This document shows, piece by piece, positions 9,217 to 45,741 of a stretch of 64,000 nt of DNA. The stretch covers positions 929-64,928 of the forward strand of contig JBBRDG010000003.1 of NCBI GenBank assembly GCA_038204165.1, read 5' to 3'. The notes beneath the pieces were generated by a model. The model saw only the letters and a list, made by a program, of their open reading frames with translations, had not been told where the DNA came from and ran no database searches. The position numbers were made by a program, and so were the translations under genes. Origin of the DNA: Elusimicrobiales bacterium (GTDB lineage Bacteria; Elusimicrobiota; Elusimicrobia; Elusimicrobiales; UBA9959). How positions within the stretch are numbered: position 1 is the stretch's first letter; each line of letters opens with the position of its first letter.

Positions 9217-9220
9217 CCCC

Positions 9221-9249: not shown

Positions 9250-9255
9250 ATCAGT

Positions 9256-9337: not shown

Positions 9338-9445
9338 TAGGCGTTTTATCGCCCTTTAGCCCCGGTTCTTCCAGTCCAACTCCCTAATTAGTATAATTAT
9401 CTATATTAAGGGCCTGCATGCCCGACTATTTTTGCTGGAGGACCT

Positions 9446-10936: not shown

Positions 10937-10946
10937 GGAGCACCGG

Positions 10947-28131: not shown

Positions 28132-29067
28132 ATGTCTTTTAAATATTTAGTCCCCTTATCTGCTTTGTTGCTCTGTCTGGCCGTTCCGGCTTTCAGCGAA
28201 GATAGTTTTTTCTCCGAACTGGAGGGGATACAGACAGAAAGCCGCGACCAGGGTGCGGCGATGCGGGCAGAGAACGTTAAGAGCCAGGCCGCGCTTAAAG
28301 TCGCCCCGCCCAAGGACGATATAAAGGCTTCGGTGATACGCCACCTGGACAGGGCCATAGCCTATTGTGATAAGAACAAGAAGGACTGCGACGGCGCGAA
28401 CGAGAGTATCCGGGATTTTTCAAAAGGCATAGGCGGCGGGCGCTGCAATAACCGCGGTTTTAACTGCGTGCACGAGGTGCTCGAGACCTGCCGCCAAGAG
28501 ATAAGCCGCAAAGAGATCACTCCCATGTACTACATGGCCTGCGCAGCCATGCTGGGCAAGATAGGCGAGCGCGACTGCGCCGAGGGGCGGGCTACTTGCG
28601 CCGCGCAACTGCAGGGGTCGGTCTATTTCGCGCTTCGCGCCGCGGCTGGCTGCCACAAGAGCTTCGAAGGAAACAAGGCCAGGCTGGCTGAGGCGGACGC
28701 TCTTGCCAAACGGTTTGCGGTCAAGGCCGGCCAGGATATAAAGGCTGTTTACGTGCAGGACGCGGAGGCGGAACAGGCACAGACCATCGGCCACCACCTG
28801 ATCTGGCATGTCGGCAAGGAAGGCGGCGTTATCGGCACTGAGAAAGTGTTGGAGTTCGCTTTTGAAAAACTCGCTCTGCACGGTGCTTCGGCGGCGGTAG
28901 AGGTTGCCGGCGGGCCGCTGTTCATCTTTTCTACTTTTATGCTGTTCCACGAGATAGCCGCTTCGGAGATGAACGACCAGGTTTGCACCGAGTGGAGTCA
29001 TTCATACAACGGCAGTTACGCCAATGCGGCCTCTTCGCTGGATAAGATGACCCGCAATATAAAGTAA
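28132..29067 (+). CDS. Hypothetical secreted Cys-rich protein
   Basis: 311 aa. Signal peptide MSFKYLVPLSALLLCLAVPAFS, at least 12 Cys in the N-terminal half, and a hydrophobic segment near the C-terminus. No family recognised. Confidence 0.6.
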   Translation: MSFKYLVPLSALLLCLAVPAFSEDSFFSELEGIQTESRDQGAAMRAENVKSQAALKVAPPKDDIKASVIRHLDRAIAYCDKNKKDCDGANESIRDFSKGIGGGRCNNRGFNCVHEVLETCRQEISRKEITPMYYMACAAMLGKIGERDCAEGRATCAAQLQGSVYFALRAAAGCHKSFEGNKARLAEADALAKRFAVKAGQDIKAVYVQDAEAEQAQTIGHHLIWHVGKEGGVIGTEKVLEFAFEKLALHGASAAVEVAGGPLFIFSTFMLFHEIAASEMNDQVCTEWSHSYNGSYANAASSLDKMTRNIK

Positions 29068-29130: not shown

Positions 29131-30456
29131 TTAGAATTTCTTCCAGAGTTTCTTTGCCAGTTCCAGGGACTTGCGCGAGATTTCCTCCTCGTCCAGGTCC
29201 AGCTTCAGCACTTTCTTCTCCATCAGTACTTTGCCGGCGGCTATAGTGGTGTCCACCGTGCTCTGGCTGATGCCGAACACCAGGTGGCCAAGGAAAGAGC
29301 CCTCGTCCAGCGGCGTAGGCGGCAGATAGTCGATTATCGCTATGTCGGCCGCGAAGCCTGCCGTAAGCTCGCCCAGTCCTTTAAAGTAGCGGTTGGCGAT
29401 AACGGCGTTATTAGTTACCAGCGCGCCGGCTTCTTCCATGAAGCCCTGAGAGGGGTCGGTCTTCAGGTGTTGCAGCCAGAGGCCGCAGCGCACTTCCTCC
29501 AGCATGTTCACGGTCATGGCGTCGGTGCCGAGGCCTACCAACACGCCCCGGGCGGCCATGCCCGTAACGTCTGCTATGCCCACGGAGTTGTTGGCGTTGG
29601 ACTGCGGGTTATGCACCACCGCGGTCCCGGTTTCCCTGAGGATCTCAATTTCCTGTTCGTTAATGTGCACGCAGTGCGCGGCGATGGACTTGCGGCCAAG
29701 TACGCCGTAGTCGCGCAGGCGCTCCACCACGCGCACCTTGTGCTGGGCTTCACAATCCAACTGGTCCGCCTGGGATTCGGCGGTGTGCACGTGGAACCCG
29801 GCCCCCAGTTTATGGCCGCGGTAGGCGGCTTCTTCCAGGGTTTTGTCCGAAAGCGTGAAGGAGGCGTGCAGGCCGAACAGGCCCTTTATGGTGTTGTCGT
29901 CTTTGGCCTGGGCCGCGGCGATAAAAGCCGCGTTCTCCTCTATGCCTTCCTTAGCTTTTTCCTCGCCGTCGCGGTCGGAAACCTCGTAGCAGAGAGCGGC
30001 GCGCAGGCCGGTCTCCCGCACCCCCTTCTCGATGGCGGCTAGCGAGCCGGTGATAGCGAAGGGGCTGGCATGATGGTCGATGATGGTGGTGGTGCCCTTT
30101 CTGATGGCGTTTATCAGCGGAATTACAGCGCTGTAGTAAGAATCGGCGTTTGTGAGGTGCTTGTCCAGCTTCCACCACAGGTTATTCAGTATCTCCAGGA
30201 AGTTCTTGGAAGGCGCGGCTTTGCCGAGCCCGCGCGCGAACGTGCTGTAGAAGTGCATGTGGGCGTTGATGAAGCCCGGCATCACTATTTTGCCGGCCGC
30301 GTCTATAACCTTGCTGTACTTGCCCCTGAAGGTTTTCTGCGGGGCTATCTTTTTAATCAACCCGTCCTCTATCAGCAGCGCGTTGCCGTACAGCACCTTG
30401 TTCTTCGCGCCGAGCGTGGCGATGATGCCGTTTTTGATCAGTATAGTTTTAGCCAT
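29131..30456 (-). CDS. ssnA: SsnA-family aminohydrolase (amidohydrolase superfamily)
   Basis: 441 aa. Motifs PGFINAHMHFYS, LNNLWWKLDKHL and IDHHASPFAITGSL match my recollection of E. coli SsnA. Confidence 0.8.
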   Translation of the reverse strand: MAKTILIKNGIIATLGAKNKVLYGNALLIEDGLIKKIAPQKTFRGKYSKVIDAAGKIVMPGFINAHMHFYSTFARGLGKAAPSKNFLEILNNLWWKLDKHLTNADSYYSAVIPLINAIRKGTTTIIDHHASPFAITGSLAAIEKGVRETGLRAALCYEVSDRDGEEKAKEGIEENAAFIAAAQAKDDNTIKGLFGLHASFTLSDKTLEEAAYRGHKLGAGFHVHTAESQADQLDCEAQHKVRVVERLRDYGVLGRKSIAAHCVHINEQEIEILRETGTAVVHNPQSNANNSVGIADVTGMAARGVLVGLGTDAMTVNMLEEVRCGLWLQHLKTDPSQGFMEEAGALVTNNAVIANRYFKGLGELTAGFAADIAIIDYLPPTPLDEGSFLGHLVFGISQSTVDTTIAAGKVLMEKKVLKLDLDEEEISRKSLELAKKLWKKF

Positions 30457-30459
30457 AGT

Positions 30460-33018
30460 TTATTCCGGGCAGACCTTGAGTTCGGCCGCCGTGCGTTTGC
30501 GCATCTTTATCGCCCCGGCGAAACATTTTTTGGCGCAGAGCGAGCAACCTACGCACTTTGAAGCGTCGAAGTGCGGGATCTTGTCGCCGTCGAGCTTTAC
30601 GGCCAGATAGCCGCAGCGTTCGCAGTTGCCGCAATGCTGGCACAGGTCAGCGTCCACAGAGGGGAGGCCTTTTACCGGGGTGAGTCCCATGAAACCTGTC
30701 ACGGGGTCAGGCAGCGCGCAGCCGATGAATTCTTCCACCGACTTATAGCCTTTCTCCTCCAGCATATGGCTCAGGCCCCAGTTAAGTTCGTCGATGACGC
30801 CGTAGCCATACTTCATCACTACGGTGCAGAACTGCACGGATTTGGCGCCCAGCGCCAGAAAATGCGCCGCGGCCTTGTAGTCCATTGGCCCGCCGTTGCC
30901 AGAGATAGGCACGCCGAGGTTCACGGCCTTGGCGATGGTCAGGTTGCTGATCGGGGCCACGCCCTCGCCGCTCATGCCCACTATCATGCCTTCTTCCCAG
31001 TCGCCCTTGCCGGAAAGACGCTCGCGGAAGGCCAGCGCCGGGAAAGAATTGGCGAGCGTGATGCCGGCCTTCTTGTGCGGGTACTTGGCGTACACCTGCT
31101 TTATGGCGTTTACCACCTGCCAGATGGCGGTGACGGCGCCGGTCAGCTTGAAGAGCTTCGGAATCTCGGGGTTGGAGACTTCCATCACCCAGCCTATAAT
31201 CTTGGCGGTAAGTTCCGGGTCCTGGGAAACAATGTCGCCCTTGGTCCCGTCGCCGCCCTGCGGGCAGGAGAGGGAGTACTCTATGGCCATAGCGCCGGCT
31301 TTCTCCAGCTTAAGGGTATTGGACTGCCAGCCCTTCCGGTCAAACTCGTCGTTGCCGGTTACGGGGCCGCCGGTGGAAGCGGCGGTAAGGCGGTCGGGGT
31401 ATTCCTTCACCAGTTTCGCTACTTCTTTGCAGACGCGGTCGAGCGAGTGGCCCGAGACGTTGTCCGAATTCCCGTAGGTGTTTTGGTCGAAGGTCACCAT
31501 GTATTCGGCGGGGATGTGTATGTCGAGCCCGTCAAAGGCGGTCTTCATCACCACGCCGGGCCAGCCAGCCTCATAGGCTTTTTTCACCTGTTCGTACCCG
31601 TCCGAATGGGGGGAGGCGGATATAATGAAGGGTGAGCTGAGCTTGCGGCCGAAGAAGTCGGTGGCGAGGTCTACCGGCAGCATGTTTCTGCCTTTCAGGA
31701 TCACCGCGCTCTTTTTGTCGGTGGACCAGGCGTCGGTAAGGCCGCACACTTTTTTTGTGTAGGTGAGTTCGCCGTCTATAATGCTCCGTTCGTAGGCGCT
31801 GACACTTTCCGGGAAGAGCTCGGCGCGCGGTCCTTTGCCGCCCATAAAAGCGTGCGCGGTCAGCGCGGCGTTCTTGGCGGAGGCGACAGATTCCACCACG
31901 GTGGAGGCGCCGTTGCGGCAGTCACCGGCAAGGAAGACGCCTTTGGTCTGCTCGTCTTTAAAGACCGGGATATTCTTTATCGCCAGTACCACAAAGTCTA
32001 TGTCGGAGCGGACCTGGCCGGAGCCTTTGATGTCGTTGGCTTTCTCGTCCAGGCGGGCTACGGTGATGCCCTTTACCTTTTTGCCATCGGCCAGTATGCC
32101 GGTGATGCGCGACTTGGCGTTGATGTTGATGCCTGAGCTGAGGATGTCATGCAGCTCTTTTTTTGGCAGCTGGATGTGGCCGATGTTCTTGCGGGTGAAG
32201 ATTTCCGCCTTATGCGCGCCGGCTTTCAGCGCTATCACGGCGCAGTCGGCCGCTACTGCGCCGCCGCCTATTACGGCCACGTTCTTCCCCTTAAGGGGGT
32301 ATTTTTTTATATTTGCCAGGAATTCAAGGCCTTCCACGCCCAGGTTCTCGTTCGGGATGTTCAGCTTGATCTGGTCCGCCACGCCGGCGGTAACGATGAC
32401 CGCGCCGTACTTCTTCAGCAGCGCGGCCGGGTCTTTAACCGCGGAACCGGTTTTAATGGCGATGTCACCCAGGGTTTTAACCCATTCAATCTCGGTGCGG
32501 AGGACTTCTTTCGGAAATCGTTTTTCCGGGATCAGGCCCGCGGCGCCGCCGGCTTTTTTATCCTTCTCGAACACGTCCACTTTATAGCCCAGCTGCGCCA
32601 GCACTCCCGCCGCGGCTAGCCCTGCGGGGCCCGCGCCGATTACGGCGGCTTTCTTGCCGTTGGGTTTGGCTTTTTTGAACTTCGGCATAACGCCCAGTTC
32701 TTTGGCCTTCTGCACTATGGCGGCCTGGGCGGCGGGGATGTTTATCGGATTATCGAAAATTTTACGGGAGCAGGCTTTAACGCAGAACCAGTCGGGGCAG
32801 ATAGCGCCGCATACACCGCCGAAAGTGTTATGCCCCATGATCAGGGCGGCTGAACGCTTAATGTCGGACTTGGCCATGCCGCGCGCGGCCATCAGGAAGT
32901 CAGCCGGAGAGCAGTCAGCGGGGCAGGCCGTTTTGCAGGGCTTCTCCTCGCAGTACAGGCAGCGCTCCGCCTCGGCTTTAAGCTGGGCGTCCGACAGGAA
33001 GGTTATTTTTCTGGTCAT
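30460..33018 (-). CDS. Fused dihydropyrimidine-dehydrogenase-like flavoenzyme (PreT/GltD-like + PreA/DHOD-like TIM barrel + 2x[4Fe-4S])
   Basis: 852 aa. N-terminal FeS helical domain (CLYCEEKPCKTACP), FAD (VIGAGPAGLAAAG) and NADPH (VIGGGAVAADCA) folds, a TIM barrel with the SLSCPQGG catalytic-Cys loop, and C-terminal CQHCGNCERC / CVGCSLCAKKC. Confidence 0.8.
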   Translation of the reverse strand: MTRKITFLSDAQLKAEAERCLYCEEKPCKTACPADCSPADFLMAARGMAKSDIKRSAALIMGHNTFGGVCGAICPDWFCVKACSRKIFDNPINIPAAQAAIVQKAKELGVMPKFKKAKPNGKKAAVIGAGPAGLAAAGVLAQLGYKVDVFEKDKKAGGAAGLIPEKRFPKEVLRTEIEWVKTLGDIAIKTGSAVKDPAALLKKYGAVIVTAGVADQIKLNIPNENLGVEGLEFLANIKKYPLKGKNVAVIGGGAVAADCAVIALKAGAHKAEIFTRKNIGHIQLPKKELHDILSSGININAKSRITGILADGKKVKGITVARLDEKANDIKGSGQVRSDIDFVVLAIKNIPVFKDEQTKGVFLAGDCRNGASTVVESVASAKNAALTAHAFMGGKGPRAELFPESVSAYERSIIDGELTYTKKVCGLTDAWSTDKKSAVILKGRNMLPVDLATDFFGRKLSSPFIISASPHSDGYEQVKKAYEAGWPGVVMKTAFDGLDIHIPAEYMVTFDQNTYGNSDNVSGHSLDRVCKEVAKLVKEYPDRLTAASTGGPVTGNDEFDRKGWQSNTLKLEKAGAMAIEYSLSCPQGGDGTKGDIVSQDPELTAKIIGWVMEVSNPEIPKLFKLTGAVTAIWQVVNAIKQVYAKYPHKKAGITLANSFPALAFRERLSGKGDWEEGMIVGMSGEGVAPISNLTIAKAVNLGVPISGNGGPMDYKAAAHFLALGAKSVQFCTVVMKYGYGVIDELNWGLSHMLEEKGYKSVEEFIGCALPDPVTGFMGLTPVKGLPSVDADLCQHCGNCERCGYLAVKLDGDKIPHFDASKCVGCSLCAKKCFAGAIKMRKRTAAELKVCPE

Positions 33019-33064
33019 GTTGCGTCTCCGTGGCTCATGGAATGCTGATAATAGATTCTATAAT

Positions 33065-34000
33065 TTATCGTGCCGCGAAATTAAGCAGCGAAAAAGGCCT
33101 GGCGGAATTTACCGTGCAAAGGAGTTTTTTGTCCCTGAAGGCTGAAACCCCGTTTTTGCCTGCGGCAAGGGCGTTGCCGGCCGCCAGCTTTTTTACTATC
33201 GAGCCGGGCAGCAGGCTGTATGGAGCGGCCAGGCGGCTATAGCGGGCTTTGCCGTTCTTTGCCGTCCCGTCCAGGACCACGTATTCATATTTGTCCCTGA
33301 ATAGCACCGGCTTCGCCAGGTATTCACGCAGCACGGCCGCTCGCCCGGGAAGGTACTCCTGCAAGAAGGCAAAAATTTCTTTAGCCACTGCCACGCTGTG
33401 CCGGCAGTCGTAGGCGCAGGGGTGCCAGCTGATTACCTGCAGGGCGGCAAGGTCTAGGCCCTTATTGGCAGCCCTTATACGGGCGAAGGCGTCCATGTCC
33501 GCGGGTTTACCCGTAAGGCGGGAAAAATAATTAAAGACATTGTTCAAACCAAAATACAATTTTTTGTTGGCCTGCGTATTGGCTGAAGTGTGGTTCACCA
33601 GGTCGGTGGTCTCCGCCACGGAACGCCAGCCTATATACGCTTTTACGCAGCATTCCGGATAGCCGAGCAGCACGCCCCAGTCCGGATCGGTGGGGGAACG
33701 GTACCAACTCTTTGCTGCCTGTTTCAGGGCGGAGAGAGTTTTTCCTATGAGCAACATCCGCTTGCCGGCCCGGGGGATGGCTTTGAAGCCTTCCCTTCCG
33801 TAGAGCGCCTCCGGCATCAGGTATTTAAGTTTTAAAACTTCGCACAGGTTCTTTATGTAAGGCCAGCTGTCAGCGGTAAAATCCGTATAGAGCACCGGTT
33901 TGCGGCCTATCAGCAGGGCTGAAAGATCGGCCAGGCCGGGGTCGAAGTCGCGGAGTTCTTTAAGACCGTTAAGCGGTTTTCGTAATTTCAGATATGGCAT
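33065..34000 (-). CDS. Hypothetical protein with GYPECC and WHPCAYDC motifs
   Basis: 311-aa ORF and first gene of the minus-strand operon, 46 nt upstream of the DPD-like gene. No family confidently recognised. Confidence 0.6.
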   Translation of the reverse strand: MPYLKLRKPLNGLKELRDFDPGLADLSALLIGRKPVLYTDFTADSWPYIKNLCEVLKLKYLMPEALYGREGFKAIPRAGKRMLLIGKTLSALKQAAKSWYRSPTDPDWGVLLGYPECCVKAYIGWRSVAETTDLVNHTSANTQANKKLYFGLNNVFNYFSRLTGKPADMDAFARIRAANKGLDLAALQVISWHPCAYDCRHSVAVAKEIFAFLQEYLPGRAAVLREYLAKPVLFRDKYEYVVLDGTAKNGKARYSRLAAPYSLLPGSIVKKLAAGNALAAGKNGVSAFRDKKLLCTVNSARPFSLLNFAAR

Positions 34001-34105
34001 AGTACCCGCGTATTATTTTACAACAATTAGACAGGGTTCAAATCCGTCTCAAAATTTTAGATAATATTAGTACAAACTCTGAATTCAGCAGCGAAGGCCC
34101 GAGGA

Positions 34106-35488
34106 ATGACAATGGCTAACAAATCTATGCTTATCCGCAACGCCCTGGTCCTGGCCACCATGGACGGTCAGGGACGTGAAATAAAGGGCGGCGATGTCTA
34201 CATCGAAGGCCCGGAGATAAAAAAAGTCGGAAAAAACCTCAGGGTGAAGGCCGATACCGTCATTGACGCCAAGGGCTGCGTAGTGCTGCCCGGCTTTGTG
34301 AACACCCACCACCACCTATACCAGACCCTGACGCGCAACCTGCCCAAGGCGCAGGATTCCAAGCTTTTCGACTGGCTGATCTACCTTTACGACATCTGGA
34401 AACACATCAACCCCGAGGCTGTGTACGCCAGCACGCAGGTGGGCCTGGGCGAGCTGCTACTGACCGGCTGCACCACCAGCACCGATCACCTGTACCTGTT
34501 CCCCAAGCAGAACAGCGGCCTCTTCATCGACACCCAGATTGAGGCGGCCAGGGAACTCGGCATGCGCTTTCACCCGACGCGCGGTTCAATGTCGCGCGGG
34601 CGCTCCAAGGGCGGCCTGCCGCCTGACAGCGTAGTGCAGAGTGAAGATTTTATTATGAAGGATTGCGAGCGCCTGGTGCATAAGTACCACGACGCTAAAG
34701 ATTTTGCCATGACCCGGGTGGCGCTGGCGCCGTGCTCGCCATTTTCCGTAACCACCGAGCTTCTGAAGCTTACCGCGGTGATGGCCAAGAAATGGGGCGT
34801 GCGGATGCATACCCACCTGGCCGAAACTATCGACGAAGAGGACTTCTGCAAAAAGCTCTTCAAGATGCGGCCGCTGGACTACATGGAATCCGTAGGCTGG
34901 GTGAGCGAAGGCAATGCCTGGTTCGCTCATTGCGTTTATATTAACGAGGCCGAAGCTAAAAGGATGGGGAAAACCCATACCGGCGTGGCGCATTGCCCCT
35001 GCTCCAACCTGCGCCTCGGTTCCGGCATAGCTCCCATACGGATGTTCATGGAGCACAATGTGCCTGTGGGCATTGCCGTGGACGGCTCCGCCTCCAACGA
35101 TTCTTCCGACATGCTGGGCGAAATACGCCAGGCCATGCTGGTGCAGCGCGTTAAGGCGGGCGTGGAAGCCATGCCGGCGCGCGACGCTTTTAAGCTCGCT
35201 ACCCTGGGCGGCGCTTCCGTGCTGGGCCGCACGGATATCGGCTCTATCGAACCGGGTAAAGCCGCCGACCTCGCCATCTTCGACGTGAGCGGGCTGGATT
35301 TTGCGGGCTCCAAGTCGGACCCGCTGGCCTCGCTGCTGTTCTGCGGCGCCTCGCACCGGACCAAGTACACCGTAGTGAACGGCAAGGTGGTGGTGAAGAA
35401 CGGCCGCCTGGTCAACGTGGACGAATTCAAACTGGCCGAGCGCGCCAACAAAGCCGCCGCCTCGCTTTACAGAAAGGGCGGCTGCTGA
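34106..35488 (+). CDS. Amidohydrolase of the 8-oxoguanine deaminase / ATZ-TRZ family
   Basis: 460 aa. The N-terminus LIRNALVLATMD...GDVYIEG...VLPGFVNTHHHLYQTL is typical of this deaminase subgroup. Confidence 0.8.
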   Translation: MTMANKSMLIRNALVLATMDGQGREIKGGDVYIEGPEIKKVGKNLRVKADTVIDAKGCVVLPGFVNTHHHLYQTLTRNLPKAQDSKLFDWLIYLYDIWKHINPEAVYASTQVGLGELLLTGCTTSTDHLYLFPKQNSGLFIDTQIEAARELGMRFHPTRGSMSRGRSKGGLPPDSVVQSEDFIMKDCERLVHKYHDAKDFAMTRVALAPCSPFSVTTELLKLTAVMAKKWGVRMHTHLAETIDEEDFCKKLFKMRPLDYMESVGWVSEGNAWFAHCVYINEAEAKRMGKTHTGVAHCPCSNLRLGSGIAPIRMFMEHNVPVGIAVDGSASNDSSDMLGEIRQAMLVQRVKAGVEAMPARDAFKLATLGGASVLGRTDIGSIEPGKAADLAIFDVSGLDFAGSKSDPLASLLFCGASHRTKYTVVNGKVVVKNGRLVNVDEFKLAERANKAAASLYRKGGC

Positions 35489-35511
35489 GAAAACTGTACT
35501 AACGGAATATC

Positions 35512-36462
35512 ATGTCAGGCTTAATGCTGAGGTCACTTCTTATAATGCTTTTCTGCTCGCCCCTGGCGGCGCAGGGCGGTACGCGCGCCGCCGATTCCGA
35601 GCTGCTTAACTATATCCGGAGCAACAGCGCCGACCCCTCCTGCGGTGTCTGTCTTAACTCCGCGCACAAGCAGACCGCTAAAGCTGAACCGGCCATACAG
35701 CCGGAGAAATATCCAGGCATGGCGCTGGTGCCGGGCGGGGCCTACCGTCTCGGTTCCCCGGCCGGGACCGGCGACCCGGACGAACTACCCGCGGCAGATA
35801 TCAAGCTGGCCGCTTTCTACATGGACAAGACGGAGGTTACCATCGGGGAATACCTGAAGTTTTCCAGCGCCACCGGCGACAATTATCCAGAATGGAAAAA
35901 ACCGGGCGACAAGTTTAACGTCGATACCGGTAAAGATAAATACTACGAGCATCTTGAAGGGCTCATCCTGACCTGCCCCGGCTGCCCGGTGTTCGGCGTG
36001 AATTGGGAAGACGCCGACGCGTACTGCCGTTGGAAGAACAAACGCCTGCCCACGGAGGCCGAATGGGAGGCCGCCGCCCGCGCGGGGTCCGCGGATAAAT
36101 ATTCTTTCGGCAATTCTGCCGCCAGGGCTGAGGATTACGCTTGGCTGGAGACTAATTCAGATAAGACCCCGCACCCGGTGGGGACCAGAAAACCCAACAA
36201 GTACAGCCTCAGCGACATGCACGGCAATGTTTGGGAATGGGTGTCCGACTTTTATGACAAGGCCTATTACGCCCAGCGCCCGGCTATGGGGCCGGAAGGT
36301 CCTGAAAAGGGTAAAGAGCATGTTATACGCGGCGGCTCCTGGAATTTTGACGCCGACTCTGCGAGGTCCGGCAATCGGGCCAGCACGGACAGCCCTAACG
36401 ACGACATCGGTTTCCGCTGTGCCCAGTCCGAGGGCGGCCGTTCGAAAGATATTAAGCTGTAA
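35512..36462 (+). CDS. Exported formylglycine-generating-enzyme (SUMF1) family protein
   Basis: Signal peptide, then motifs MHGNVWEWVSDFY and IRGGSW. Confidence 0.8.
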   Translation: MSGLMLRSLLIMLFCSPLAAQGGTRAADSELLNYIRSNSADPSCGVCLNSAHKQTAKAEPAIQPEKYPGMALVPGGAYRLGSPAGTGDPDELPAADIKLAAFYMDKTEVTIGEYLKFSSATGDNYPEWKKPGDKFNVDTGKDKYYEHLEGLILTCPGCPVFGVNWEDADAYCRWKNKRLPTEAEWEAAARAGSADKYSFGNSAARAEDYAWLETNSDKTPHPVGTRKPNKYSLSDMHGNVWEWVSDFYDKAYYAQRPAMGPEGPEKGKEHVIRGGSWNFDADSARSGNRASTDSPNDDIGFRCAQSEGGRSKDIKL

Positions 36463-36594
36463 CCCTGGTATACCACCATTCCCTAACTATCGAAAGTTTT
36501 ATCCGGGCTGAAAGGTCTGATGAACCGCGGTTAAAATTTATAATAGTTCGCTCATTTTGTTATCATAGATTACTGGGGAGTAAACCATTTCGCT

Positions 36595-37197
36595 ATGCTT
36601 TCAGCAATCATACTTGCGGCGGGTGAATCTAACAGGATGGGGAAGCCCAAGGCGCTGCTCCCGTGGCGGGGCCGCCCTTTCCTGGAACATGTCTGCGATT
36701 CGCTCCGCCGGGCCGGGGTAGAGGACCGGGTGGTAGTGCTTGGCCAGTCCTCGCACGAGATCCTGGGCGGCTGGGTGCCGGCCGGGGAGAAAGTGGCAGT
36801 AAATCCGCAACCGGAGCACGGCCAGCTTTCTTCGCTGCGCACCGGGCTTGCCGACATTTCCGAATTTTCCGAAGGCTTCATGGTCTGCCTGGCCGACCAG
36901 CCTACTATCGATCCCGACACCTACAGTAAGCTCATAGCCTGCTGGCTTTCCAACAGGGAGTCCATCGTAATTCCGCGCGTTTTCAGAGCTTCAGATTCCC
37001 GCCTGAAGCGCGGGCATCCCATCATCATCCCGGCCGCTTATAAAGCGCTCTGCTTTGAAGGGCCGCTGGACAAGGGCCTGCACTGGGTAACCCACCATCC
37101 CTCCGTTAAGGTCACCGACCTGGAAGTTAAAGACTCCGGCATCATCCGCGACTTCGACACGCCGGAAGAGTACGAGGCGCTCGTTAAGGCCGGCTGA
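36595..37197 (+). CDS. mocA: Molybdenum cofactor cytidylyltransferase (MobA-like NTP transferase)
   Basis: 200 aa. The N-terminus LSAIILAAGESNRMGKPKALLPW is typical of MocA/YgfJ. Confidence 0.8.
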   Translation: MLSAIILAAGESNRMGKPKALLPWRGRPFLEHVCDSLRRAGVEDRVVVLGQSSHEILGGWVPAGEKVAVNPQPEHGQLSSLRTGLADISEFSEGFMVCLADQPTIDPDTYSKLIACWLSNRESIVIPRVFRASDSRLKRGHPIIIPAAYKALCFEGPLDKGLHWVTHHPSVKVTDLEVKDSGIIRDFDTPEEYEALVKAG

Positions 37198-38432
37198 TGT
37201 TGACGCTGCTTATCCTCCTGGCCGTTTTTCTGCTGATCGCCGTGCGGGAAGTGGGGCGCTTCCGTTTTGAGATCTGGCAGGTGATGTCCGCCGGCGCCGC
37301 CGCCGCGCTGCTGACCGGCGGAATAAAGCCGGCCGCGGCCCTCAGGGCTATCGACCCCGACGTGATGCTCTTCTTGTTCGGCATGTTCGCGGCGGGCCAG
37401 GTGCTGGAACTCAGCGGTTGGCTGGCGCACGCCAAATACGAAATTTTCAAGCGCGTTAACACCGAGAGGTCGCTCCTGCTGCTGTTGGTGTTCTTCATGG
37501 GTATCGCTTCGGCTTTCCTGATGAATGATACGCTGGCTATCATCGGCACGCCGGTAGTGCTGCTAATCGCCCGGAAACACGACATCTCTCCCAAGGCGCT
37601 GCTGCTGGCGCTCGCTTTCTCCATAACCGTGGGCAGCGTTATGAGCCCGATAGGCAACCCGCAGAACCTGCTGGTGGCCGTTAACGGGGCGATACAGTCG
37701 CCTTTCCTGACCTTCCTGAAATATTTGGCAGTGCCAACGCTACTGAACCTCGCCGCGGTCTTTGTGCTGGTGCGCCGCTTTTACCCGGAGGAATTTACCA
37801 GCTGCCCGCTTAAGAATTCCCGGGAGCCGGTTAAAGACAAAGAGCTGGCCCGGCTGGCGAAAGTGACGGTGTTTATCCTGGCGGTGATGATCGCCGCTAA
37901 AATAAGCCTGGTGTGGCTGGACCCGGCGCTGGATTTCGGGCTTATCTGGATAGCGCTGGCCGCGGCGGCGCCCGGCCTGCTGTTCAGCCCGCGCCGCGTC
38001 GAGATCCTTAAGAAAATAGATTGGAGCACGCTGGCTTTCTTCGCCGCCATGTTCGTGCTGACGCGGGCGGCCTGGGATACCGGCTTTTTCCAGGGACTGA
38101 TAGCCGGTTCGGGGGCGGACATAACCGGTTTGGGCGCGGTAATGGTGGTAAGCGTGGCGCTTAGCCAGCTAATCTCCAACGTGCCGCTGGTGGCGCTCTA
38201 CCTGCCCGTGCTGAAGCAAGCGGGCGCGGGGACCCCGGCCTTTATGGCGTTGGCCGCGGCTTCTACTTTCGCCGGCAACCTTTTCATCCTGGGCGCGGCC
38301 AGCAACGTGATAATAATCCAGGCCGCGGAAAAAAAGGCCGGAGTCACCATTACGTTCCGCGAGTTCGCCCGCATAGGAATACCGCTTACTTTTATAAATG
38401 CCATAATATACTGGATTTACCTGAAAATATAA
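37197..38432 (+). CDS. ArsB/NhaD-superfamily (SLC13-like) anion permease
   Basis: 411 aa, ~10-12 TM helices with repeated MSPIGNPQNL-type re-entrant motifs. The start overlaps the mocA stop (TGATG). Confidence 0.7.
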   Translation: MLTLLILLAVFLLIAVREVGRFRFEIWQVMSAGAAAALLTGGIKPAAALRAIDPDVMLFLFGMFAAGQVLELSGWLAHAKYEIFKRVNTERSLLLLLVFFMGIASAFLMNDTLAIIGTPVVLLIARKHDISPKALLLALAFSITVGSVMSPIGNPQNLLVAVNGAIQSPFLTFLKYLAVPTLLNLAAVFVLVRRFYPEEFTSCPLKNSREPVKDKELARLAKVTVFILAVMIAAKISLVWLDPALDFGLIWIALAAAAPGLLFSPRRVEILKKIDWSTLAFFAAMFVLTRAAWDTGFFQGLIAGSGADITGLGAVMVVSVALSQLISNVPLVALYLPVLKQAGAGTPAFMALAAASTFAGNLFILGAASNVIIIQAAEKKAGVTITFREFARIGIPLTFINAIIYWIYLKI

Positions 38433-38440
38433 GAGGGGAC

Positions 38441-39967
38441 ATGCTGAAAACCAGCACTAAAAACGAAAGGCGGACCAAGCTTAAAGGGCTTACTTCTATA
38501 GCCGTAATTCCGATCTATCTGCAGTTCGTGGATGGCGCCTTTTTTAATATGTACACGGCAGTTTTCGGCGACCCGGCTGGTACGGCGGCGGCCCGCCACG
38601 GGTTCAGCGTCATGCTGACCTCAGGGCGTTTCCTGTCCGCAGGCCTGATGACGCTGCTGATGTACCTGTGGGTTAGGCCGGCCATCCTGTATCCGGCCGA
38701 TCCCCGGCCTCGCTACCTGGAAACAATGCGCCGGCGCATAGGGAACCTCTACCGTGACGCCGGCATCATGCTGGGGGCCGCGCTGACGGCGCGCCTGCTC
38801 TTGCTCTTTTTCAGCGGAACTGCGGGGGGAGCGCTTACGCAGGTTCTGCCCGCCTTGCTGGTCTCCTACGTGGCGCAGGCCTGCGCGCTGCTGATCTACG
38901 TGGATTTTAACTTCTCGATGAACCAGGATTTTATGGAGCTGCTGTTCACGAGGGAAGAACTCTACTCGCCGCGCAGAGGCGGCTATGTGCCCCTGTATGT
39001 TAAAGTCGGGGGCCTGGTGTTCTCTTTTGCGCTGCTGCCGTTCGTGTTCGTTTACGCGGCCCTGCATAAAAGCATAGCCGCGGATTCGCTCGTGGAGCCC
39101 GCCAGCTCGCTGCTCTTCCTGTCCGCTATCACTCTCTTTGTCGGGCTTAGGTTCGTGTTCCACGGCATCCAGAAACCGCTGAACGGGCTTATAGACAAGA
39201 TGCGCCGGGTTTCCGAAGGCGATTTCGATGTTAAGACGCGGGTGTATTTCTCTGACGAAGTGGCCAGGTTGAAAGCCGGTTTCAATGAAATGGTGGACGG
39301 GCTCAAGGAGCGCGCCGAACTGCAGGATACCTTCGGCAAGTATATGTCCATAGAGATCGCGCGCGAACTCATCAAGAACAAGAAGGTTAACCTTGGCGGC
39401 GAGGACATGGAAGCGGCGGTGATGTTCTGCGACATCCGCAACTTCACTTCGCTAAGCGAGAAGATGAGTGCCTCCATGCTGGTTGAATTTCTTAACGGTT
39501 ATTTCCACTATATTACCCCGCCCATCGCCGCGCATCACGGCGTGATAAGCAAGTTTATGGGCGACGCGGTGATGGCAATTTATACGCCGCTGATGGGGTC
39601 CGGCGACTACGCCGCCGATGCGGTGCGCGCGGCCGTGGACATGCGCAAGGCCCTGTCGGAATATAACGATTCTGGCAAGCTGCACGGGCGGGTGGAGTTC
39701 GGCATAGGCGTACACTGTGGCAAGCTCGTGGCCGGGAATATCGGTACCGCGGCCCGGCTCGAATACACTTTTATCGGCGACACGGTCAATATCGCCTCGC
39801 GCCTGGAGTCAAAGACCAAGGATTTTAACACCGACATCATCGTCAGCGAGGCCGCCGTAGTAAAAGCGAGCGGGTCGCTGGGCGGCTCCGTGGCCTTTGA
39901 GCCCCTGGGCAAAGCCGCCCTGAAGGGGAAGAGCGAAATGATGGAACTTTACAAGGTGGCAAATTAA
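38441..39967 (+). CDS. Membrane-bound HAMP-domain class III adenylate/guanylate cyclase
   Basis: 508 aa. Polytopic N-terminus, a HAMP linker, and the catalytic motifs VMFCDIRNFTSLSE, GDAVMAIYTP, FIGDTVNIASRLES. Confidence 0.85.
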   Translation: MLKTSTKNERRTKLKGLTSIAVIPIYLQFVDGAFFNMYTAVFGDPAGTAAARHGFSVMLTSGRFLSAGLMTLLMYLWVRPAILYPADPRPRYLETMRRRIGNLYRDAGIMLGAALTARLLLLFFSGTAGGALTQVLPALLVSYVAQACALLIYVDFNFSMNQDFMELLFTREELYSPRRGGYVPLYVKVGGLVFSFALLPFVFVYAALHKSIAADSLVEPASSLLFLSAITLFVGLRFVFHGIQKPLNGLIDKMRRVSEGDFDVKTRVYFSDEVARLKAGFNEMVDGLKERAELQDTFGKYMSIEIARELIKNKKVNLGGEDMEAAVMFCDIRNFTSLSEKMSASMLVEFLNGYFHYITPPIAAHHGVISKFMGDAVMAIYTPLMGSGDYAADAVRAAVDMRKALSEYNDSGKLHGRVEFGIGVHCGKLVAGNIGTAARLEYTFIGDTVNIASRLESKTKDFNTDIIVSEAAVVKASGSLGGSVAFEPLGKAALKGKSEMMELYKVAN

Positions 39968-39983
39968 GTAAAATTATAATGTT

Positions 39984-40811
39984 ATGAAAGAACAAAAAAA
40001 CCTGATAAAAATGCTTTCCGAGGCCATAGACTCGGGCCGCGGGGCGGCCTTCGTCACCGTGATTTCCGTGGGTGGTTCGACTCCGCGCGAAGCCGGCGCC
40101 AGAATGCTGGTCTACGCCGACGGCTCCATAGAGGGCACGGTGGGCGGCGGCACTATCGAGATGCTGACCATAAAGAAGGCGGTCGAGTGCATAGCTAAAG
40201 GCGAGGGCGGAAAATTTAATTTCGAACTTAAGCCCGGCGGCAATACCGGCATGATCTGCATGGGCAGCATGGAAGTGTATATCGACGTATATACCAACCC
40301 GCTCAAGGTGCTGATCCTGGGCGGCGGCCACGTGGGTTTGAAGATCGCCGAGGCCTGCCGGCTGGCCGGCTATCCCTATTGCGTGGCGGACGACCGTAAG
40401 GAGTTCGCCAACGCCGAGCGGTTTCCCGGAGCTATAGCCGTTATAAACCAGGAACCGCATAAGGCGGTAGCCGCGGCGGGTGTGGATAAGGACACTTACG
40501 TGGTGATAGTCACTCGCGGGCACTCGCTGGACCGGGAATGCCTGGAAGCCGTAATGCGCACCCCTGCCGCCTACATCGGCATGATAGGCAGCGCCGATAA
40601 GGTGCGCGAGATCTTCCGCCTGCTCGGCAAGAAGAAGCTTTATCCGCACAAGGACCAGCGCGTGCATTCGCCCGTCGGGCTCAACCTGGGCGGCAAGTCG
40701 CCGGGCGAGATAGCCGTTTCCGTGCTGGCCGAGATCATACAGCTGCACTACAAGCGCGACGCCAGGCATATGCGCGTAACCGACGCCGGTCCCGCTAAAG
40801 CCGGTAAGTAA
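39984..40811 (+). CDS. xdhC: XdhC/CoxI-family molybdenum-hydroxylase maturation factor
   Basis: 275 aa. N-terminal XdhC_CoxI region (FVTVISVGGSTPREAGARMLV) plus a Rossmann-like half (VLILGGGHVG). Confidence 0.85.
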   Translation: MKEQKNLIKMLSEAIDSGRGAAFVTVISVGGSTPREAGARMLVYADGSIEGTVGGGTIEMLTIKKAVECIAKGEGGKFNFELKPGGNTGMICMGSMEVYIDVYTNPLKVLILGGGHVGLKIAEACRLAGYPYCVADDRKEFANAERFPGAIAVINQEPHKAVAAAGVDKDTYVVIVTRGHSLDRECLEAVMRTPAAYIGMIGSADKVREIFRLLGKKKLYPHKDQRVHSPVGLNLGGKSPGEIAVSVLAEIIQLHYKRDARHMRVTDAGPAKAGK

Positions 40812-40865
40812 GCGGTTAACTTTAAAATAGAAGGCGGTTTTTCTTGCAATGACCGGGTCCGCGCT

Positions 40866-41639
40866 ATGACAGATATTCAGGACCGCTACCGGCGGCAGGC
40901 CGCGCTGCGCGTGGTCGGGCCGGAGGGCCAGCGCAAGCTAGCCGCCAGCACCGTGCTGGTGGTCGGCTGCGGCGGCCTGGGTAGCGCGCAGGCACAATTC
41001 CTGGCCCGGGCCGGCGTAGGCCGGCTCATCCTGGCCGACAGGGATATAATCCAGCTTTACAACTTGCCTTACCAGTTCATCTACGACGAGAAAGACGTGA
41101 CGGAGCGCATGCCCAAGGCCGAGGCCGCCGCGCGCCGCCTGCGGGCGGTGAATTCCGGCATTACCATTGAACCGGTCGTGGTTAACGTCACCGCCGCTAA
41201 TGTGGAGGAGCTGCTGGCGCGGGCCGACCTGCTGATGGACGCCACGGACAATTTTGAGACCCGCTACCTTCTGAACGACGCGGCTGTTAAGGCTGGTAAA
41301 CCCTGGGTTTACGGCGGGGTGCTGGGCACCGACGGCACGGTGATGGCCGTGCGCCCGGGCGGGCCCTGCCTGCGCTGCCTCTTCCCGGAGCAGCCCGCCG
41401 AAGGTCTGCTGCCCAATTGCGACGCGTACGGGGTGTTGAACACCGCCGTGGCCTGGGCGGCCGCGCTGCAGGTTACCGAGGCGCTCAAATTTCTTACGGG
41501 CGCGCCCGACAAAGATTTTAAGTTCCATACGCTGGACATCTGGCAGGGTTCGGTCTCGGCGGTCTCGGCAGAGCGCCGCGCGGACTGCGTCTGCTGCGGC
41601 CAGCGCCGCTTCGAGTTTCTCAAAAAGGATCAAGTATGA
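40866..41639 (+). CDS. ThiF/MoeB/HesA-family E1-like adenylyltransferase
   Basis: 257 aa. RYRRQ, VVGCGGLGS nucleotide loop, DATDN, two CxxC pairs (CLRC, CVCC), and a conserved active-site-region Cys (NCDAYGV). No rhodanese domain. NLPYQ replaces the canonical NLQRQ. Confidence 0.85.
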   Translation: MTDIQDRYRRQAALRVVGPEGQRKLAASTVLVVGCGGLGSAQAQFLARAGVGRLILADRDIIQLYNLPYQFIYDEKDVTERMPKAEAAARRLRAVNSGITIEPVVVNVTAANVEELLARADLLMDATDNFETRYLLNDAAVKAGKPWVYGGVLGTDGTVMAVRPGGPCLRCLFPEQPAEGLLPNCDAYGVLNTAVAWAAALQVTEALKFLTGAPDKDFKFHTLDIWQGSVSAVSAERRADCVCCGQRRFEFLKKDQV

Positions 41640-43030
41640 CGAGTTTTATTCTTAATCAACGCGTGGTACATACTGACGAGCGCCCAGGCATGGTCCTGCT
41701 GGAATATATCCGTGGCGTGGCCTGTCTGTCCGGCACCAAGGAAGCCTGCCGTGAGGGCGAATGCGGCGCCTGCACCGTGCTGGTTGGAACGCGACAAGCG
41801 GACGGCACCGTGGCTTACAAGGCCTGCGCCTCCTGCCTGCTACCCATCGGCGACGTGGATGGCTGCCATATTGTTACCGTGGAGGGCCTTATCGGCGAGC
41901 CCCTTACGCTGGTGCAGCGGCTTATCGTCGAGAACAACGCCTCGCAGTGCGGGTTCTGCACCCCCGGCATAGTGCTGTCGCTTACCGGGTTCTGCCTTGG
42001 CAGTTCCACGCTTTCTTACGAACACGCTGTTGATGCGCTGGATGGCAATATCTGCCGCTGCACGGGTTATGTTTCCATCCGTAACGCGGCGCGCACGCTG
42101 TGCGAAAAATTAGCTTCAGTGGGTTCCGACCCGGCCGAACGGCTGGGCGCGCTTGTGTCCGCCGGAGTGGTGCCCGAGTACTTCCGCGCTATCCCGGACC
42201 AGTTGGCGCAGCTCCACGCCGACCCGCGGCCTGCCTGCGAGGGCGCGGTGCTGGTGGCCGGTGGCACGGACCTGTTCGCGCAGCGCCCCGAGCAATTGCT
42301 GGAAAGCGACCTTTGCTTCTTATCCGATCGCTGCGATCTAAATTATATCCGTGTAGATGGCGAGTTCCTGCGTGTTGGCGGGGGGGTAACTATCGAAGAT
42401 TTCCGCCGGTCTGCCCCGGTGCTTAAGCATTTTACTGAAGTAGCGCAGGACCTCCTGCGGCATTCCTCCACGATTTTGCGCAACAAGGCCACGCTCACCG
42501 GCAATATCGTAAACGCTTCTCCCATCGGCGACGCCAGCATCATTCTGCTGGCGCTCGGTGCGCGGCTCATTATCGAGGGTCGTGGCGGAGCCAAACGGGA
42601 AGTGCCGCTCTCGAAGTTCTTCCTAGGCTATAAGAAAACTGATCTTGCATGCGGTGAGCTTGTGGCCGAGATTATAATTCCGCTGCTGCCGGCCGGCGCC
42701 AGCTACCATTTTGAGAAGGTCTCCAACCGGGCCACGCTCGATATTGCGGCGGTAAACACCGCGCTGCGTCTGGCCATCGGGCCAGACGGGGCCATCACCG
42801 GCCTGAGTCTTGCCGCCGGAGGCGTGGGGCCGACCCCGCTCCTGATAGGCGGCCTTGAGGTTTTTTACGGCCGCAAGCCGGACGCTGGCACTGTAGATGC
42901 TATAGCCAAGACTGCCGAGGCCGCGGCTAAACCTATAGACGATATCCGCGGCTCCGCCGCTTACAAGAAATTACTGTTGGGCCAATTGGTGCGCGCTCAT
43001 TTTACCGCCACCGCCGGGGAGGCCGTATGA
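41636..43030 (+). CDS. xdhA: Xanthine dehydrogenase small subunit (2x[2Fe-2S] + FAD domain)
   Basis: 464 aa. Motifs CREGECGACTV, CGFCTPG, CRCTGY and the FAD domain LVAGGTDL. 4-nt overlaps on both sides. Confidence 0.88.
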   Translation: MTSFILNQRVVHTDERPGMVLLEYIRGVACLSGTKEACREGECGACTVLVGTRQADGTVAYKACASCLLPIGDVDGCHIVTVEGLIGEPLTLVQRLIVENNASQCGFCTPGIVLSLTGFCLGSSTLSYEHAVDALDGNICRCTGYVSIRNAARTLCEKLASVGSDPAERLGALVSAGVVPEYFRAIPDQLAQLHADPRPACEGAVLVAGGTDLFAQRPEQLLESDLCFLSDRCDLNYIRVDGEFLRVGGGVTIEDFRRSAPVLKHFTEVAQDLLRHSSTILRNKATLTGNIVNASPIGDASIILLALGARLIIEGRGGAKREVPLSKFFLGYKKTDLACGELVAEIIIPLLPAGASYHFEKVSNRATLDIAAVNTALRLAIGPDGAITGLSLAAGGVGPTPLLIGGLEVFYGRKPDAGTVDAIAKTAEAAAKPIDDIRGSAAYKKLLLGQLVRAHFTATAGEAV

Positions 43031-45270: not shown

Positions 45271-45300
45271 GGGAAGGGGAATCTGATTGGAGGAAAGGGG

Positions 45301-45351
45301 AAATAGGGGACAGCGCCCTATATTTCCGAAATAGGGCGCTGTCCCCTATTT
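45301..45351 (+). terminator. Strong hairpin terminator after xdhB
   Basis: Perfect 21-bp stem AAATAGGGGACAGCGCCCTAT / ATAGGGCGCTGTCCCCTATTT with a 9-nt loop, followed by TTTT. Confidence 0.7.
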
Positions 45352-45386
45352 TTCCCCGGAGTTTAGTCCAGTAGCAACTTCAATCC

Positions 45387-45416
45387 TTGACAGGCTTGAG
45401 CGGCCGCTGATACAAT
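45387..45416 (+). promoter_or_regulatory. Sigma70 promoter abutting the moaD start codon
   Basis: TTGACA (45387-45392), an 18-nt spacer, TACAAT (45411-45416). Only 7 nt lie between the -10 and the ATG at 45424, with no SD. Confidence 0.6.
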
Positions 45417-45423
45417 TCTTAAG

Positions 45424-45669
45424 ATGAAAAAGAAAATTATGGTCCGCTATTTTGCGCTTATCGGCGAGCGGCGCGGCACGCAGACCGAGGCCTATGAGAC
45501 CTGCGCCGAGACGGCGCGGGAGCTGCTGCACGAGCTGCAGGCCGGCAAAGTTATTCCCCTTACCACCAACATCTCCAAGGCCTCCATAAACGACAAGTTC
45601 GTGGACTGGGACGCCCCCATCCAAGACGGCGACCTGGTCACCCTGCTCTCCCCGTTCTCCGGCGGTTGA
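45424..45669 (+). CDS. moaD: MoaD/ThiS-family ubiquitin-like sulfur carrier
   Basis: 81 aa ending in ...LLSPFSGG (C-terminal Gly-Gly). MVRYFALIGERRG aligns with MoaD N-termini, so an alternative start is the ATG at 45439. Confidence 0.85.
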   Translation: MKKKIMVRYFALIGERRGTQTEAYETCAETARELLHELQAGKVIPLTTNISKASINDKFVDWDAPIQDGDLVTLLSPFSGG

Positions 45670-45684
45670 GACAATCCGGATAAA

Positions 45685-45726
45685 AGAAAACCGCCGCCGC
45701 ATAGGGATATGCGGCGGCGGTTTTCT
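45685..45726. terminator. Bidirectional rho-independent terminator
   Basis: 19-bp stem AGAAAACCGCCGCCGCATA / TATGCGGCGGCGGTTTTCT with a 4-nt loop, between convergent moaD and the minus-strand Mo subunit. Confidence 0.8.
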
Positions 45727-45741
45727 GTTGTTCCAGGTCTG

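Follow-up and report, generated by a model that had tools for sequence, protein, structure and literature searches.

The Locus and Its Genes

The subject of this report is a gene in a stretch of 64,000 nucleotides (nt) from an Elusimicrobiales bacterium (contig JBBRDG010000003.1 of assembly GCA_038204165.1), which is called the window below. The gene encodes a protein of 311 residues, assigned here to the Pfam family DUF483, and lies 46 nt upstream of a gene on the same strand for a DPD-like iron-sulfur (Fe-S) flavoprotein, which is followed by ssnA (Table 1). Four family-wide invariant cysteines mark a likely metal site, the family as a whole is linked above all to radical S-adenosylmethionine (SAM) genes, and the neighbourhood with ssnA is facultative. 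The open reading frame (ORF) starts with ATG, and this start is supported because homologues align from residue 1. A first-pass annotation, made from the letters of the window and a list of its ORFs, had described this ORF with the motifs GYPECC and WHPC-x3-DC, had seen no signal peptide or transmembrane helix in it, and had called it slightly richer in A+T than its neighbours. All of this holds. Both motifs are found in the translated ORF, and their occurrence is far above chance. A hydrophobic N-terminus was not found in the 311-residue protein, the AlphaFold model is globular throughout, and the protein is soluble. The G+C content of the gene is 0.550, with 0.647 at third codon positions (GC3), against 0.587-0.595 and a GC3 of 0.76-0.79 in three adjacent genes.

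Table 1. Features at and around the DUF483 gene; coordinates are those of the window, and residue numbers those of the DUF483 protein unless stated.
Feature	Coordinates	Strand	Basis
DUF483-family gene, 311 residues, ATG start, three-domain model	33065..34000	-	ORF, Pfam, homologues, AlphaFold
GYPECC motif, residues 113-118; CC pair at the N-terminus of predicted helix 116-126	33647..33664	-	Read from sequence
SWHPCAYDC motif, residues 191-199; C199 at the N-terminus of predicted helix 200-216	33404..33430	-	Read from sequence
AT-rich element AAATTATAGAATCTAT, overlapping the DUF483 stop codon, within the 46 nt that lead to the DPD-like gene; 5-1-5 palindrome ATAGA-A-TCTAT	33051..33066	-	
Divergent intergenic region between DUF483 and deaminase genes; two minus-strand promoter-like sites at 34083-34054 and 34041-34012	34001..34105	.	
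14-nt direct repeat, copy TTCGCTGCT[T/G]AATT, encoding the conserved C-terminal SLLNF	33079..33092	-	
14-nt direct repeat, second copy, adjoining the deaminase start codon	34082..34095	-	
DPD-like Fe-S flavoprotein, 852 residues: Fer4_20, FAD/NAD(P)H module, DHO_dh/PreA-type barrel, 2x[4Fe-4S]	30460..33018	-	
SsnA aminohydrolase, ring-opening partner of the reductase	29131..30456	-	NF005540, 526 bits (cutoff 444)
8-oxoguanine-deaminase-like amidohydrolase, divergent; other edge of the variable slot	34106..35488	+	NF006055, 649 bits (cutoff 532)

Family Membership and the Cysteine Site

In a Pfam search, DUF483 (PF04467) is the sole match of the window protein, with 24.5 bits and an E value of 2.9e-5, just under the gathering cutoff of 25, and the model covers only its residues 99-141. 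Relatives rise above the cutoff (P0116 with 32.2 bits, P0215 with 29.3 bits; P and L numbers denote homologous proteins and loci), and two proteins 59-65% identical to the window protein, P0017 and P0018, carry precomputed PF04467 annotation. DUF483 and no other family was matched in 101 of 126 diverse homologues. The name "DUF483 domain-containing protein" is also used by NCBI for P0018, P0207, P0208 and P0220, one relative so named being 59% identical. The conserved LGYPxCC ... PCxYxC core is present in the window protein and agrees in LGYPxCC and PCxxxC with the 122-position Pfam model, and annotated relatives are known from archaea and Elusimicrobia. The first-pass annotation could assign no family; judged by this match, by the assignments of its relatives and by the naming of one of them at NCBI, the window protein belongs to the uncharacterised family DUF483. 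As DUF483 has no known function, belonging to it gives no mechanism.

A word-indexed search returned 49 homologues, and 378 were found among representatives clustered at 50%. The close ones come nearly all from Elusimicrobia metagenome-assembled genomes (MAGs), where they are named "hypothetical" or "DUF483 domain-containing", and the family is found in Elusimicrobia, Myxococcales/Polyangiaceae, bacteria of the candidate phyla radiation (CPR) and DPANN archaea. Other searches were negative. NCBIfam gave no match to the window protein, PDB sequence and profile searches gave nothing below E 0.4, and a literature search for DUF483 or PF04467 returned nothing besides word matches to DUF4830-4839. 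PADLOC defence models did not match any of 7 diverse DUF483 members. The window protein has neither a PF04055 match nor a CxxxCxxC motif, which places it outside the radical SAM superfamily, and in Pfam, NCBIfam and PDB it showed no similarity to XdhD, YgfK/UacX, SsnA, HyuA, YgeW/UacY, YgeY or YgeX.

Conservation was counted over 188 family representatives, with totals of 181-184 at individual positions. C117 (181/181) and C199 (184/184) are without exception, C118 is kept in 180/181, and C195 in 182/184, with His in the other two. Y114 (180/181) and N153 (182/182) are conserved to the same degree, P115, S202 and K34 are also essentially invariant, and a conserved His alternates between positions 192 and 193, so that the family shows either "WH-PC" or "H[IV]-PC". 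The LGYPxCC ... PCxYxC core as a whole is invariant in these representatives. Because the four cysteines are invariant with rare Cys-to-His swaps, they are taken as a putative metal or cluster ligand set, and not as a disulfide or a single nucleophile. It is quite likely, from this pattern of conservation, that C117, C118, C195 and C199 bind a metal or an Fe-S cluster. Of the suggestions in the first-pass annotation, a metal or Fe-S site or a catalytic thiol pair, the former gains ground.

The AlphaFold2 model, made with a 30-sequence alignment, has a pLDDT (predicted local distance difference test) of 93.7 and a pTM (predicted template-modelling score) of 0.91. It is composed of an N-terminal alpha/beta domain (residues ~1-100) with K34 as an invariant residue, a Cys-rich helical core in the centre (~100-230), in which the Pfam match falls, and a C-terminal beta domain (~231-311), and both Cys motifs are placed at helix N-termini. 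A fold search with the predicted structure, which had been proposed as a check in the first-pass annotation, gave nothing at E <= 1e-3 with Foldseek in PDB and BFVD; the top entries were 2guk (no assigned function), NleE, and phage proteins that are themselves uncharacterised. As modelled, the DUF483 fold is without a solved relative. Several known folds and enzyme types were considered and rejected. An NleE-like cysteine methyltransferase does not fit, as comparison with 4r29 gave a TM score of 0.25 normalised by the query and 0.37 normalised by the target (a score above 0.5 was asked for) at E 0.5-3. For a cytidine-deaminase-like Zn enzyme, the motif is PCx3C and not PCxxC, the Glu ahead of the CC pair is not conserved (E116 in 70/181 sequences), and no match to the cytidine deaminase fold was obtained. 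Papain-like, transglutaminase and ferredoxin-like folds were rejected because Foldseek found no significant match in PDB or BFVD.

Association with Radical SAM Genes

The genomic context of the family was surveyed by a six-frame census of 88 loci, in which radical SAM genes were detected with phmmer seeds. There were 174 radical SAM matches in 1338 kb of DUF483 loci and 1 in 747 kb of control loci, an enrichment of ~97-fold. A radical SAM ORF on the same strand lies at most 400 nt from DUF483 in 27 of 86 copies, and 25 of the 86 have at least three radical SAM genes within 5 kb. The dominant linkage of the family is to radical SAM genes, and not to heterocycle metabolism. Even close relatives of the window protein (P0017 and P0018, 59-65% identity), as well as P0044, P0031 and P0046, sit in clusters of 7-15 radical SAM genes. 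These DUF483-bearing clusters also hold B12-radical SAM, HemN-like, TP_methylase, peptidase U32 and fused NifH/NifD-like genes, together with SufS-like cysteine desulfurase genes, which in several clusters stand close by. The directly coupled upstream partner is HxsC-like, and in L003 (partner at 9099-10004) and L009 (partner at 9102-10004) its stop codon and the DUF483 start codon overlap by 4 nt. Three alternating pairs of HxsC-like radical SAM and DUF483 genes follow each other in L003 (7269-14083), and a DPANN-type archaeal contig (L053, 6287-16833) has four DUF483 copies amid ten radical SAM genes. These tandem pairs suggest a 1:1 pairing of enzyme and partner. Fusions are also known, of radical SAM with DUF483 (P0137, P0177), of DUF483 with class I SAM methyltransferases (P0243, P0246, P0248), and of TPR repeats with DUF483. 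About 20 key residues are identical in 35 of 35 copies of the clade, whether they are linked to ssnA, to guaAB or to radical SAM genes. Since these residues are identical in every context, the same molecular activity would be used in all of them.

Three known systems invite comparison. SPASM/twitch domains are rich in Cys and are either joined to a radical SAM core or placed next to it, and DUF483 is found in similar positions, C-terminal to radical SAM in the fusions and beside HxsC-like enzymes that lack SPASM. The likeness is one of role only: no PF13186-type match was found in 126 members, the cysteine spacing is CC-x76-C-x3-C and not of the CxxCx5Cx3C type, and DUF483 is much larger (~300 residues, three domains) and gives no fold match. 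Among the His-Xaa-Ser (Hxs) maturases (HxsB/HxsC/HxsD), HxsC is nearest to the coupled radical SAM partner (TIGR03977, 152-164 bits), and the clusters contain HxsD-like genes as well. However, the 268 bits set as the HxsC cutoff are not reached by these partners, the defined Hxs components do not include DUF483, and no HxsA repeat peptide was identified. The third system is the group VI nitrogenase-like (NFL) and multi-radical-SAM clusters of Elusimicrobia, Myxococcales and CPR, that is, the same taxa and clusters as DUF483, with up to 12-15 radical SAM genes accompanied by B12-radical SAM, HemN-like, TP_methylase and fused NifH/NifD-like genes (L009, L028, L043). Group VI nitrogenase-like genes were described in these taxa and clusters without mention of DUF483 (Meheust et al. 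2020, 10.1101/765248), and the clusters are still called uncharacterised in a 2026 review (PMC13474568). The DUF483 copy of the window, however, lies outside any such cluster.

Outside the radical SAM clusters the contexts are heterogeneous, and no shared theme was found among those that remain. In three Elusimicrobia species, guaA, guaB and DUF483 follow one another with abutting stop and start codons (L008, 6944-10846; L019, 6992-10891; L020). This is a second purine-related context, and it keeps purine-related ideas about the family alive. In L016 (8906-10602), the gene of a close homologue (69% identity) comes directly after two others, one for a hybrid histidine kinase and one for an antitoxin-like protein of the AbiEi_2 type; given that no PADLOC model matches the family, the adjacency to the antitoxin-like gene is probably coincidental.

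The Urate Island and the Missing-Step Idea

The region 29131-48078 of the window encodes SsnA, the DPD-like reductase, the 8-oxoguanine-deaminase-like protein, a MobA-like protein, XdhC, ThiF, an XDH FAD/2Fe-2S subunit and two XDH-family molybdenum-cofactor subunits, the last two on opposite strands. In its gene content it matches an island for the reductive uric-acid (2,8-dioxopurine) pathway. In this pathway, urate is reduced to 2,8-dioxopurine by XdhD-type enzymes, YgfK or the DHO_dh-type UacX dearomatises the product, and SsnA opens the ring (10.1101/2025.05.19.654654, 10.1101/2025.04.24.650524). The two genes downstream of DUF483 resemble the YgfK/UacX-SsnA module, being a DHO_dh-type Fe-S flavoprotein and a bona fide SsnA within an island with XDH-family, XdhC and 8-oxoguanine-deaminase-like genes, and the DPD-like gene appears to be the counterpart of the YgfK/UacX 2,8-dioxopurine reductase. 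There are differences from the characterised module, which has no DUF483: the Elusimicrobia reductase is a fusion of GltD-like and PreA/UacX-like parts and not YgfK proper, and TIGR03315 covers only its residues 23-305. Two further ORFs of the window stand at or within this island. An ORF beside ssnA (28132-29067, plus strand), also of 311 residues, has a signal-peptide-like N-terminus, many cysteines and no Pfam match. Between the deaminase and MobA-like genes, the ORF at 35512-36462 (plus strand) combines a signal-peptide-like N-terminus with an FGE-sulfatase (SUMF1-like) domain.

The first-pass annotation had suggested that the DUF483 gene could supply a missing enzymatic or maturation step of the pathway. 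Taken as an enzyme, the protein would be thiol- or metal-dependent and would act on purine or hydantoin intermediates of the ssnA pathway. The position of the gene, on the same strand upstream of a reductase and a ring hydrolase, agrees with an additional step of this kind, as do the many invariant polar residues besides the cysteines, which suggest an active site, and the guaA-guaB-DUF483 arrangement in three species. However, in vitro reconstitution of the whole route from urate to pyruvate succeeded without a DUF483-like protein (10.1101/2025.05.19.654654, 10.1101/2025.04.24.650524). A missing catalytic step is unlikely because of this reconstitution and because the window carries the matching island. 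DUF483 is also absent from most reductase/SsnA loci, copies in radical SAM clusters without purine genes have identical core residues, and neither fold nor sequence resembles a known hydrolase or transferase. The enzymatic half of the suggestion thus has little probability, also in view of the 10 close and 45 distant reductase loci without DUF483 (see below), but the protein may still serve the Fe-S reductase as an accessory or in its maturation. YgfK activity itself needed Fe-S reconstitution or co-expression of suf (10.1101/2025.05.19.654654, 10.1101/2025.04.24.650524).

Another purine-related idea takes both kinds of context together. The activity of radical SAM enzymes requires removal of their by-products. 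DUF483 could be an enzyme that processes the 5'-deoxyadenosine, S-adenosylhomocysteine or methylthioadenosine which SAM enzymes release, and passes the purine on to salvage by guaAB or to catabolism by Xdh, the reductase and SsnA. This would account for the SAM-enzyme contexts as well as for the two separate purine contexts, the fusions and neighbourhoods do involve radical SAM and class I methyltransferase domains, and the neighbouring amidohydrolases belong to a superfamily that includes 5'-deoxyadenosine deaminase. However, the idea rests on gene context, a Cys4 site leaves no open coordination for a hydrolytic metal, no similarity to nucleosidases, phosphorylases or deaminases was seen, and it offers no explanation for the fusions with TPR repeats or for the many contexts that are unrelated. 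We consider it very unlikely.

An Optional Slot beside the Reductase and ssnA Genes

The order DUF483, DPD-like reductase, SsnA with a divergent deaminase gene is found in 11 GTDB Elusimicrobia species, namely that of the window and 10 more (L005, L012, L013, L022-L026, L029, L042), and also in 8 metagenomic loci. Among close relatives of the reductase (71-86% identity), DUF483 is present in 8 of 18 informative loci and absent in 10; among distant ones (51-61% identity) it is present in 0 of 45. Co-occurrence with the reductase/SsnA pair is, on these counts, not obligatory. The space between the deaminase and reductase genes may be empty (60-80 nt) or occupied by a Ser/Thr kinase-TPR gene, by DUF483, or by both. 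The kinase with TPR repeats has ~880 residues in L005 (7126-9777), and its gene is also seen in L023, L024, L026, L029, L042, L089, L090, L093, L102, L103, L108, L109 and L126; the window has no kinase gene. DUF483 is a facultative, replaceable, lineage-specific neighbour of the urate operon. The linkage to ssnA that the first-pass annotation had put forward for checking thus recurs in position, in 11 species and 8 metagenomic loci, but fails in the 10 close and 45 distant loci without DUF483.

The gap between DUF483 and the reductase has a signal of its own. A TATA(G/A)AAT-type element is located 30-45 nt upstream of the start of the DPD-like gene in nearly all arrangements, whether DUF483, the kinase or nothing precedes (besides the window, L005, L022-L024, L026, L029, L042, L089, L090, L092-L094, L096, L097, L101, L104, L109 and L126). 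L025 alone has a gap of 18 nt before the reductase, and this gap lacks the element. Because it precedes the reductase in nearly all arrangements, the reductase/ssnA unit probably has its own promoter, and the element at 33051-33066, by its sequence and position, is probably the -10 region or an operator of this unit. It is thus doubtful that the DUF483 gene is the first gene of the operon, as had been annotated. No terminator-like site was found in the 46-nt gap after the DUF483 gene. A riboswitch or other leader RNA was considered and rejected, since Rfam finds nothing in the window, L005, L012 and L025 except one tRNA; this tRNA gene (63420-63491, plus strand) is the only match in the window at the gathering threshold. 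In L012 (~10990-11085), and with the same sequence in L098, a perfect tandem duplication of ~47 nt (GTTTGATGAGCATAGCTCTTGATACGGCACCGGCATAGCCTGG...) lies between DUF483 and the reductase start; Rfam gave no match to the L012 duplication. The two copies of the direct repeat that flank the DUF483 gene are identical at 13 of 14 positions, and 1 of 500 shuffles was as extreme. A mobile cassette was not adopted as an explanation because, despite this figure, the 14-nt repeat is absent from the other loci.

A promoter-proximal slot that is variable and shared with a Ser/Thr kinase-TPR gene may call to mind a regulatory adaptor, or a sensor of redox state or metals, that would control the operon next to it by contacts between proteins. 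The existence of TPR-DUF483 fusions and the fast-evolving surface around a fixed core would suit such a protein. However, it has no DNA-binding or signalling domain, and the 1:1 alternation with radical SAM genes, together with the fusions to catalytic domains, fits an enzyme subunit better. This explanation has very little probability.

The history of the slot was followed with bootstrapped neighbour-joining trees. Across the linked loci the operon partners are 73-98% identical and the DUF483 copies 38-95%; dN/dS, the ratio of nonsynonymous to synonymous rates, is 0.10-0.36 for the ssnA-linked DUF483 copies and 0.03-0.2 for the partners. The DUF483 gene is under purifying selection. The trees of DUF483 and the reductase are incongruent. 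The window reductase pairs with that of L025 (100% bootstrap), and the window DUF483 groups with the L005 lineage (84%, within a 96-98% clade), the L025 copy falling outside with a radical-SAM-linked copy (81%). The ssnA-linked copy of L092 is sister to the radical-SAM-cluster copies of L001 and L007 (100%), and the L022 group nests among copies without ssnA (99%). In all, four or more DUF483 subclades are represented in the slot. The event in L025 can be placed by a sliding comparison of nucleotide identity. Between the window and L025, identity is 82-93% over both flanking genes and ~40-57% exactly over the intergenic region and DUF483, and the L025 paralogue (9953-10945) is 39% identical to the window protein between flanking proteins that are 83-93% identical, with breakpoints at the gene ends. 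Between the window and L005, identity is uniform at 72-82% throughout. From this comparison, the window copy is consistent with vertical descent beside the operon, and in L025 a different paralogue has overwritten the copy that was there. Lateral acquisition of the window copy, to which the tree and the base composition had pointed, was dropped, since the divergence from L005 is uniform and the replaced copy is that of L025. The other subclades may have been recruited independently, or they may stem from an ancestral ssnA-linked copy by outward duplication, and the neighbour-joining trees fit either.

These findings bear on a further explanation, namely that the window gene, as one of several scattered DUF483 paralogues, is a passenger in a divergent, recombination-prone slot without a functional tie to ssnA or the reductase, and has its role in another place, perhaps with radical SAM enzymes whose genes lie beyond the window. 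The variable content of the slot is what would be expected from it, and so are the relatives without DUF483 (10/18 informative close and 45/45 distant ones), the promoter-like element that the DPD-like gene retains for itself, the ~25% of family copies in unrelated contexts, and the three DUF483 copies carried by each of STC_50 and GWC2_64_44. On the other hand, 19 loci keep the gene in this position, where it is under purifying selection, four or more subclades are represented by copies in this one slot, and in L025 the paralogue was replaced rather than lost, with only 18 nt to the reductase gene. In several MAGs, with their incompleteness in mind, the ssnA-linked copy is also the only family member detected. 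On balance we regard a mere passenger as unlikely, although it deserves to be taken seriously.

Proposed Role

We propose that C117, C118, C195 and C199 of a soluble three-domain protein would form a metal or Fe-S site, and that DUF483 would assist SAM-dependent Fe-S enzymes as an accessory, probably in a 1:1 pairing and chiefly with HxsC-like radical SAM proteins. It would most likely supply an auxiliary redox or metal centre, or help to load or maintain the clusters of its partner. In one sub-lineage of Elusimicrobia, a copy with an identical core is located just upstream of the 2,8-dioxopurine-reductase-like flavoprotein and SsnA as an optional add-on, where it would probably assist the reductase by electron entry or cluster maturation and not by an extra catalytic step. 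A precedent for a small Cys4 redox partner is Dph3/Kti11, an iron protein that gives electrons to the radical-SAM-like Dph1-Dph2. Dph3 itself is a CSL zinc-ribbon of ~80 residues with CxxC knuckles and is not known to be related to DUF483 in sequence or fold. The parts of the proposal are not equally firm. An accessory role with Fe-S/SAM enzymes, to which the gene neighbourhoods and fusions point, has about even odds, and a functional tie of the window copy to the DPD-like reductase is only tentatively suggested. For the reading as a whole, a Cys4 metal or Fe-S accessory of Fe-S/SAM enzymes with optional attachment to the urate reductase, we would give a probability of roughly 0.4.

Several observations weigh against this proposal. 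In the window, the conserved promoter-like element stands between the DUF483 and reductase genes, and no radical SAM gene is present in the 64 kb. The closest metagenomic relatives of the reductase/SsnA pair (L089 and L090, 86% identity) are without DUF483, and in E. coli and Clostridium the pair functions without it (10.1101/2025.05.19.654654, 10.1101/2025.04.24.650524). At the cysteine site, two cysteines in direct succession (CC) would be unusual if a single Zn were bound, and the other invariant polar residues (K34, Y114, N153, S202 and the His at 192/193) suggest a catalytic pocket and not a simple carrier. Finally, adjacency is weakly predictive for DUF483 because about a quarter of its copies have neighbours of unrelated kinds, among them citrate synthase, HtrA, KAS and glycosyltransferase genes.

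A bolder version can also be stated. DUF483 might represent an unrecognised class of auxiliary metallocluster protein with a new fold, working 1:1 with HxsC-like radical SAM enzymes in the multi-radical-SAM and group VI nitrogenase-like clusters and reused by Elusimicrobia for electron entry or cluster maturation in the 2,8-dioxopurine reductase; or it might be a new Fe-S enzyme that ties the adenosyl by-products of SAM enzymes to purine metabolism. We hold this to be improbable.

Implications

For the window, the annotation of the gene is corrected, from a missing pathway enzyme to an optional, lineage-specific neighbour of the urate operon. For the family, DUF483 gains three handles, namely an invariant Cys4 site, a confident model without a solved relative, and a strong tie to HxsC-like radical SAM enzymes that is both statistical and seen in fusions. 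This tie concerns the large gene clusters found in Elusimicrobia, Myxococcales, bacteria of the CPR and DPANN archaea. The copy in the urate operon offers a simpler test bed for DUF483, as the chemistry of the neighbouring reductase and SsnA is known and assayable.

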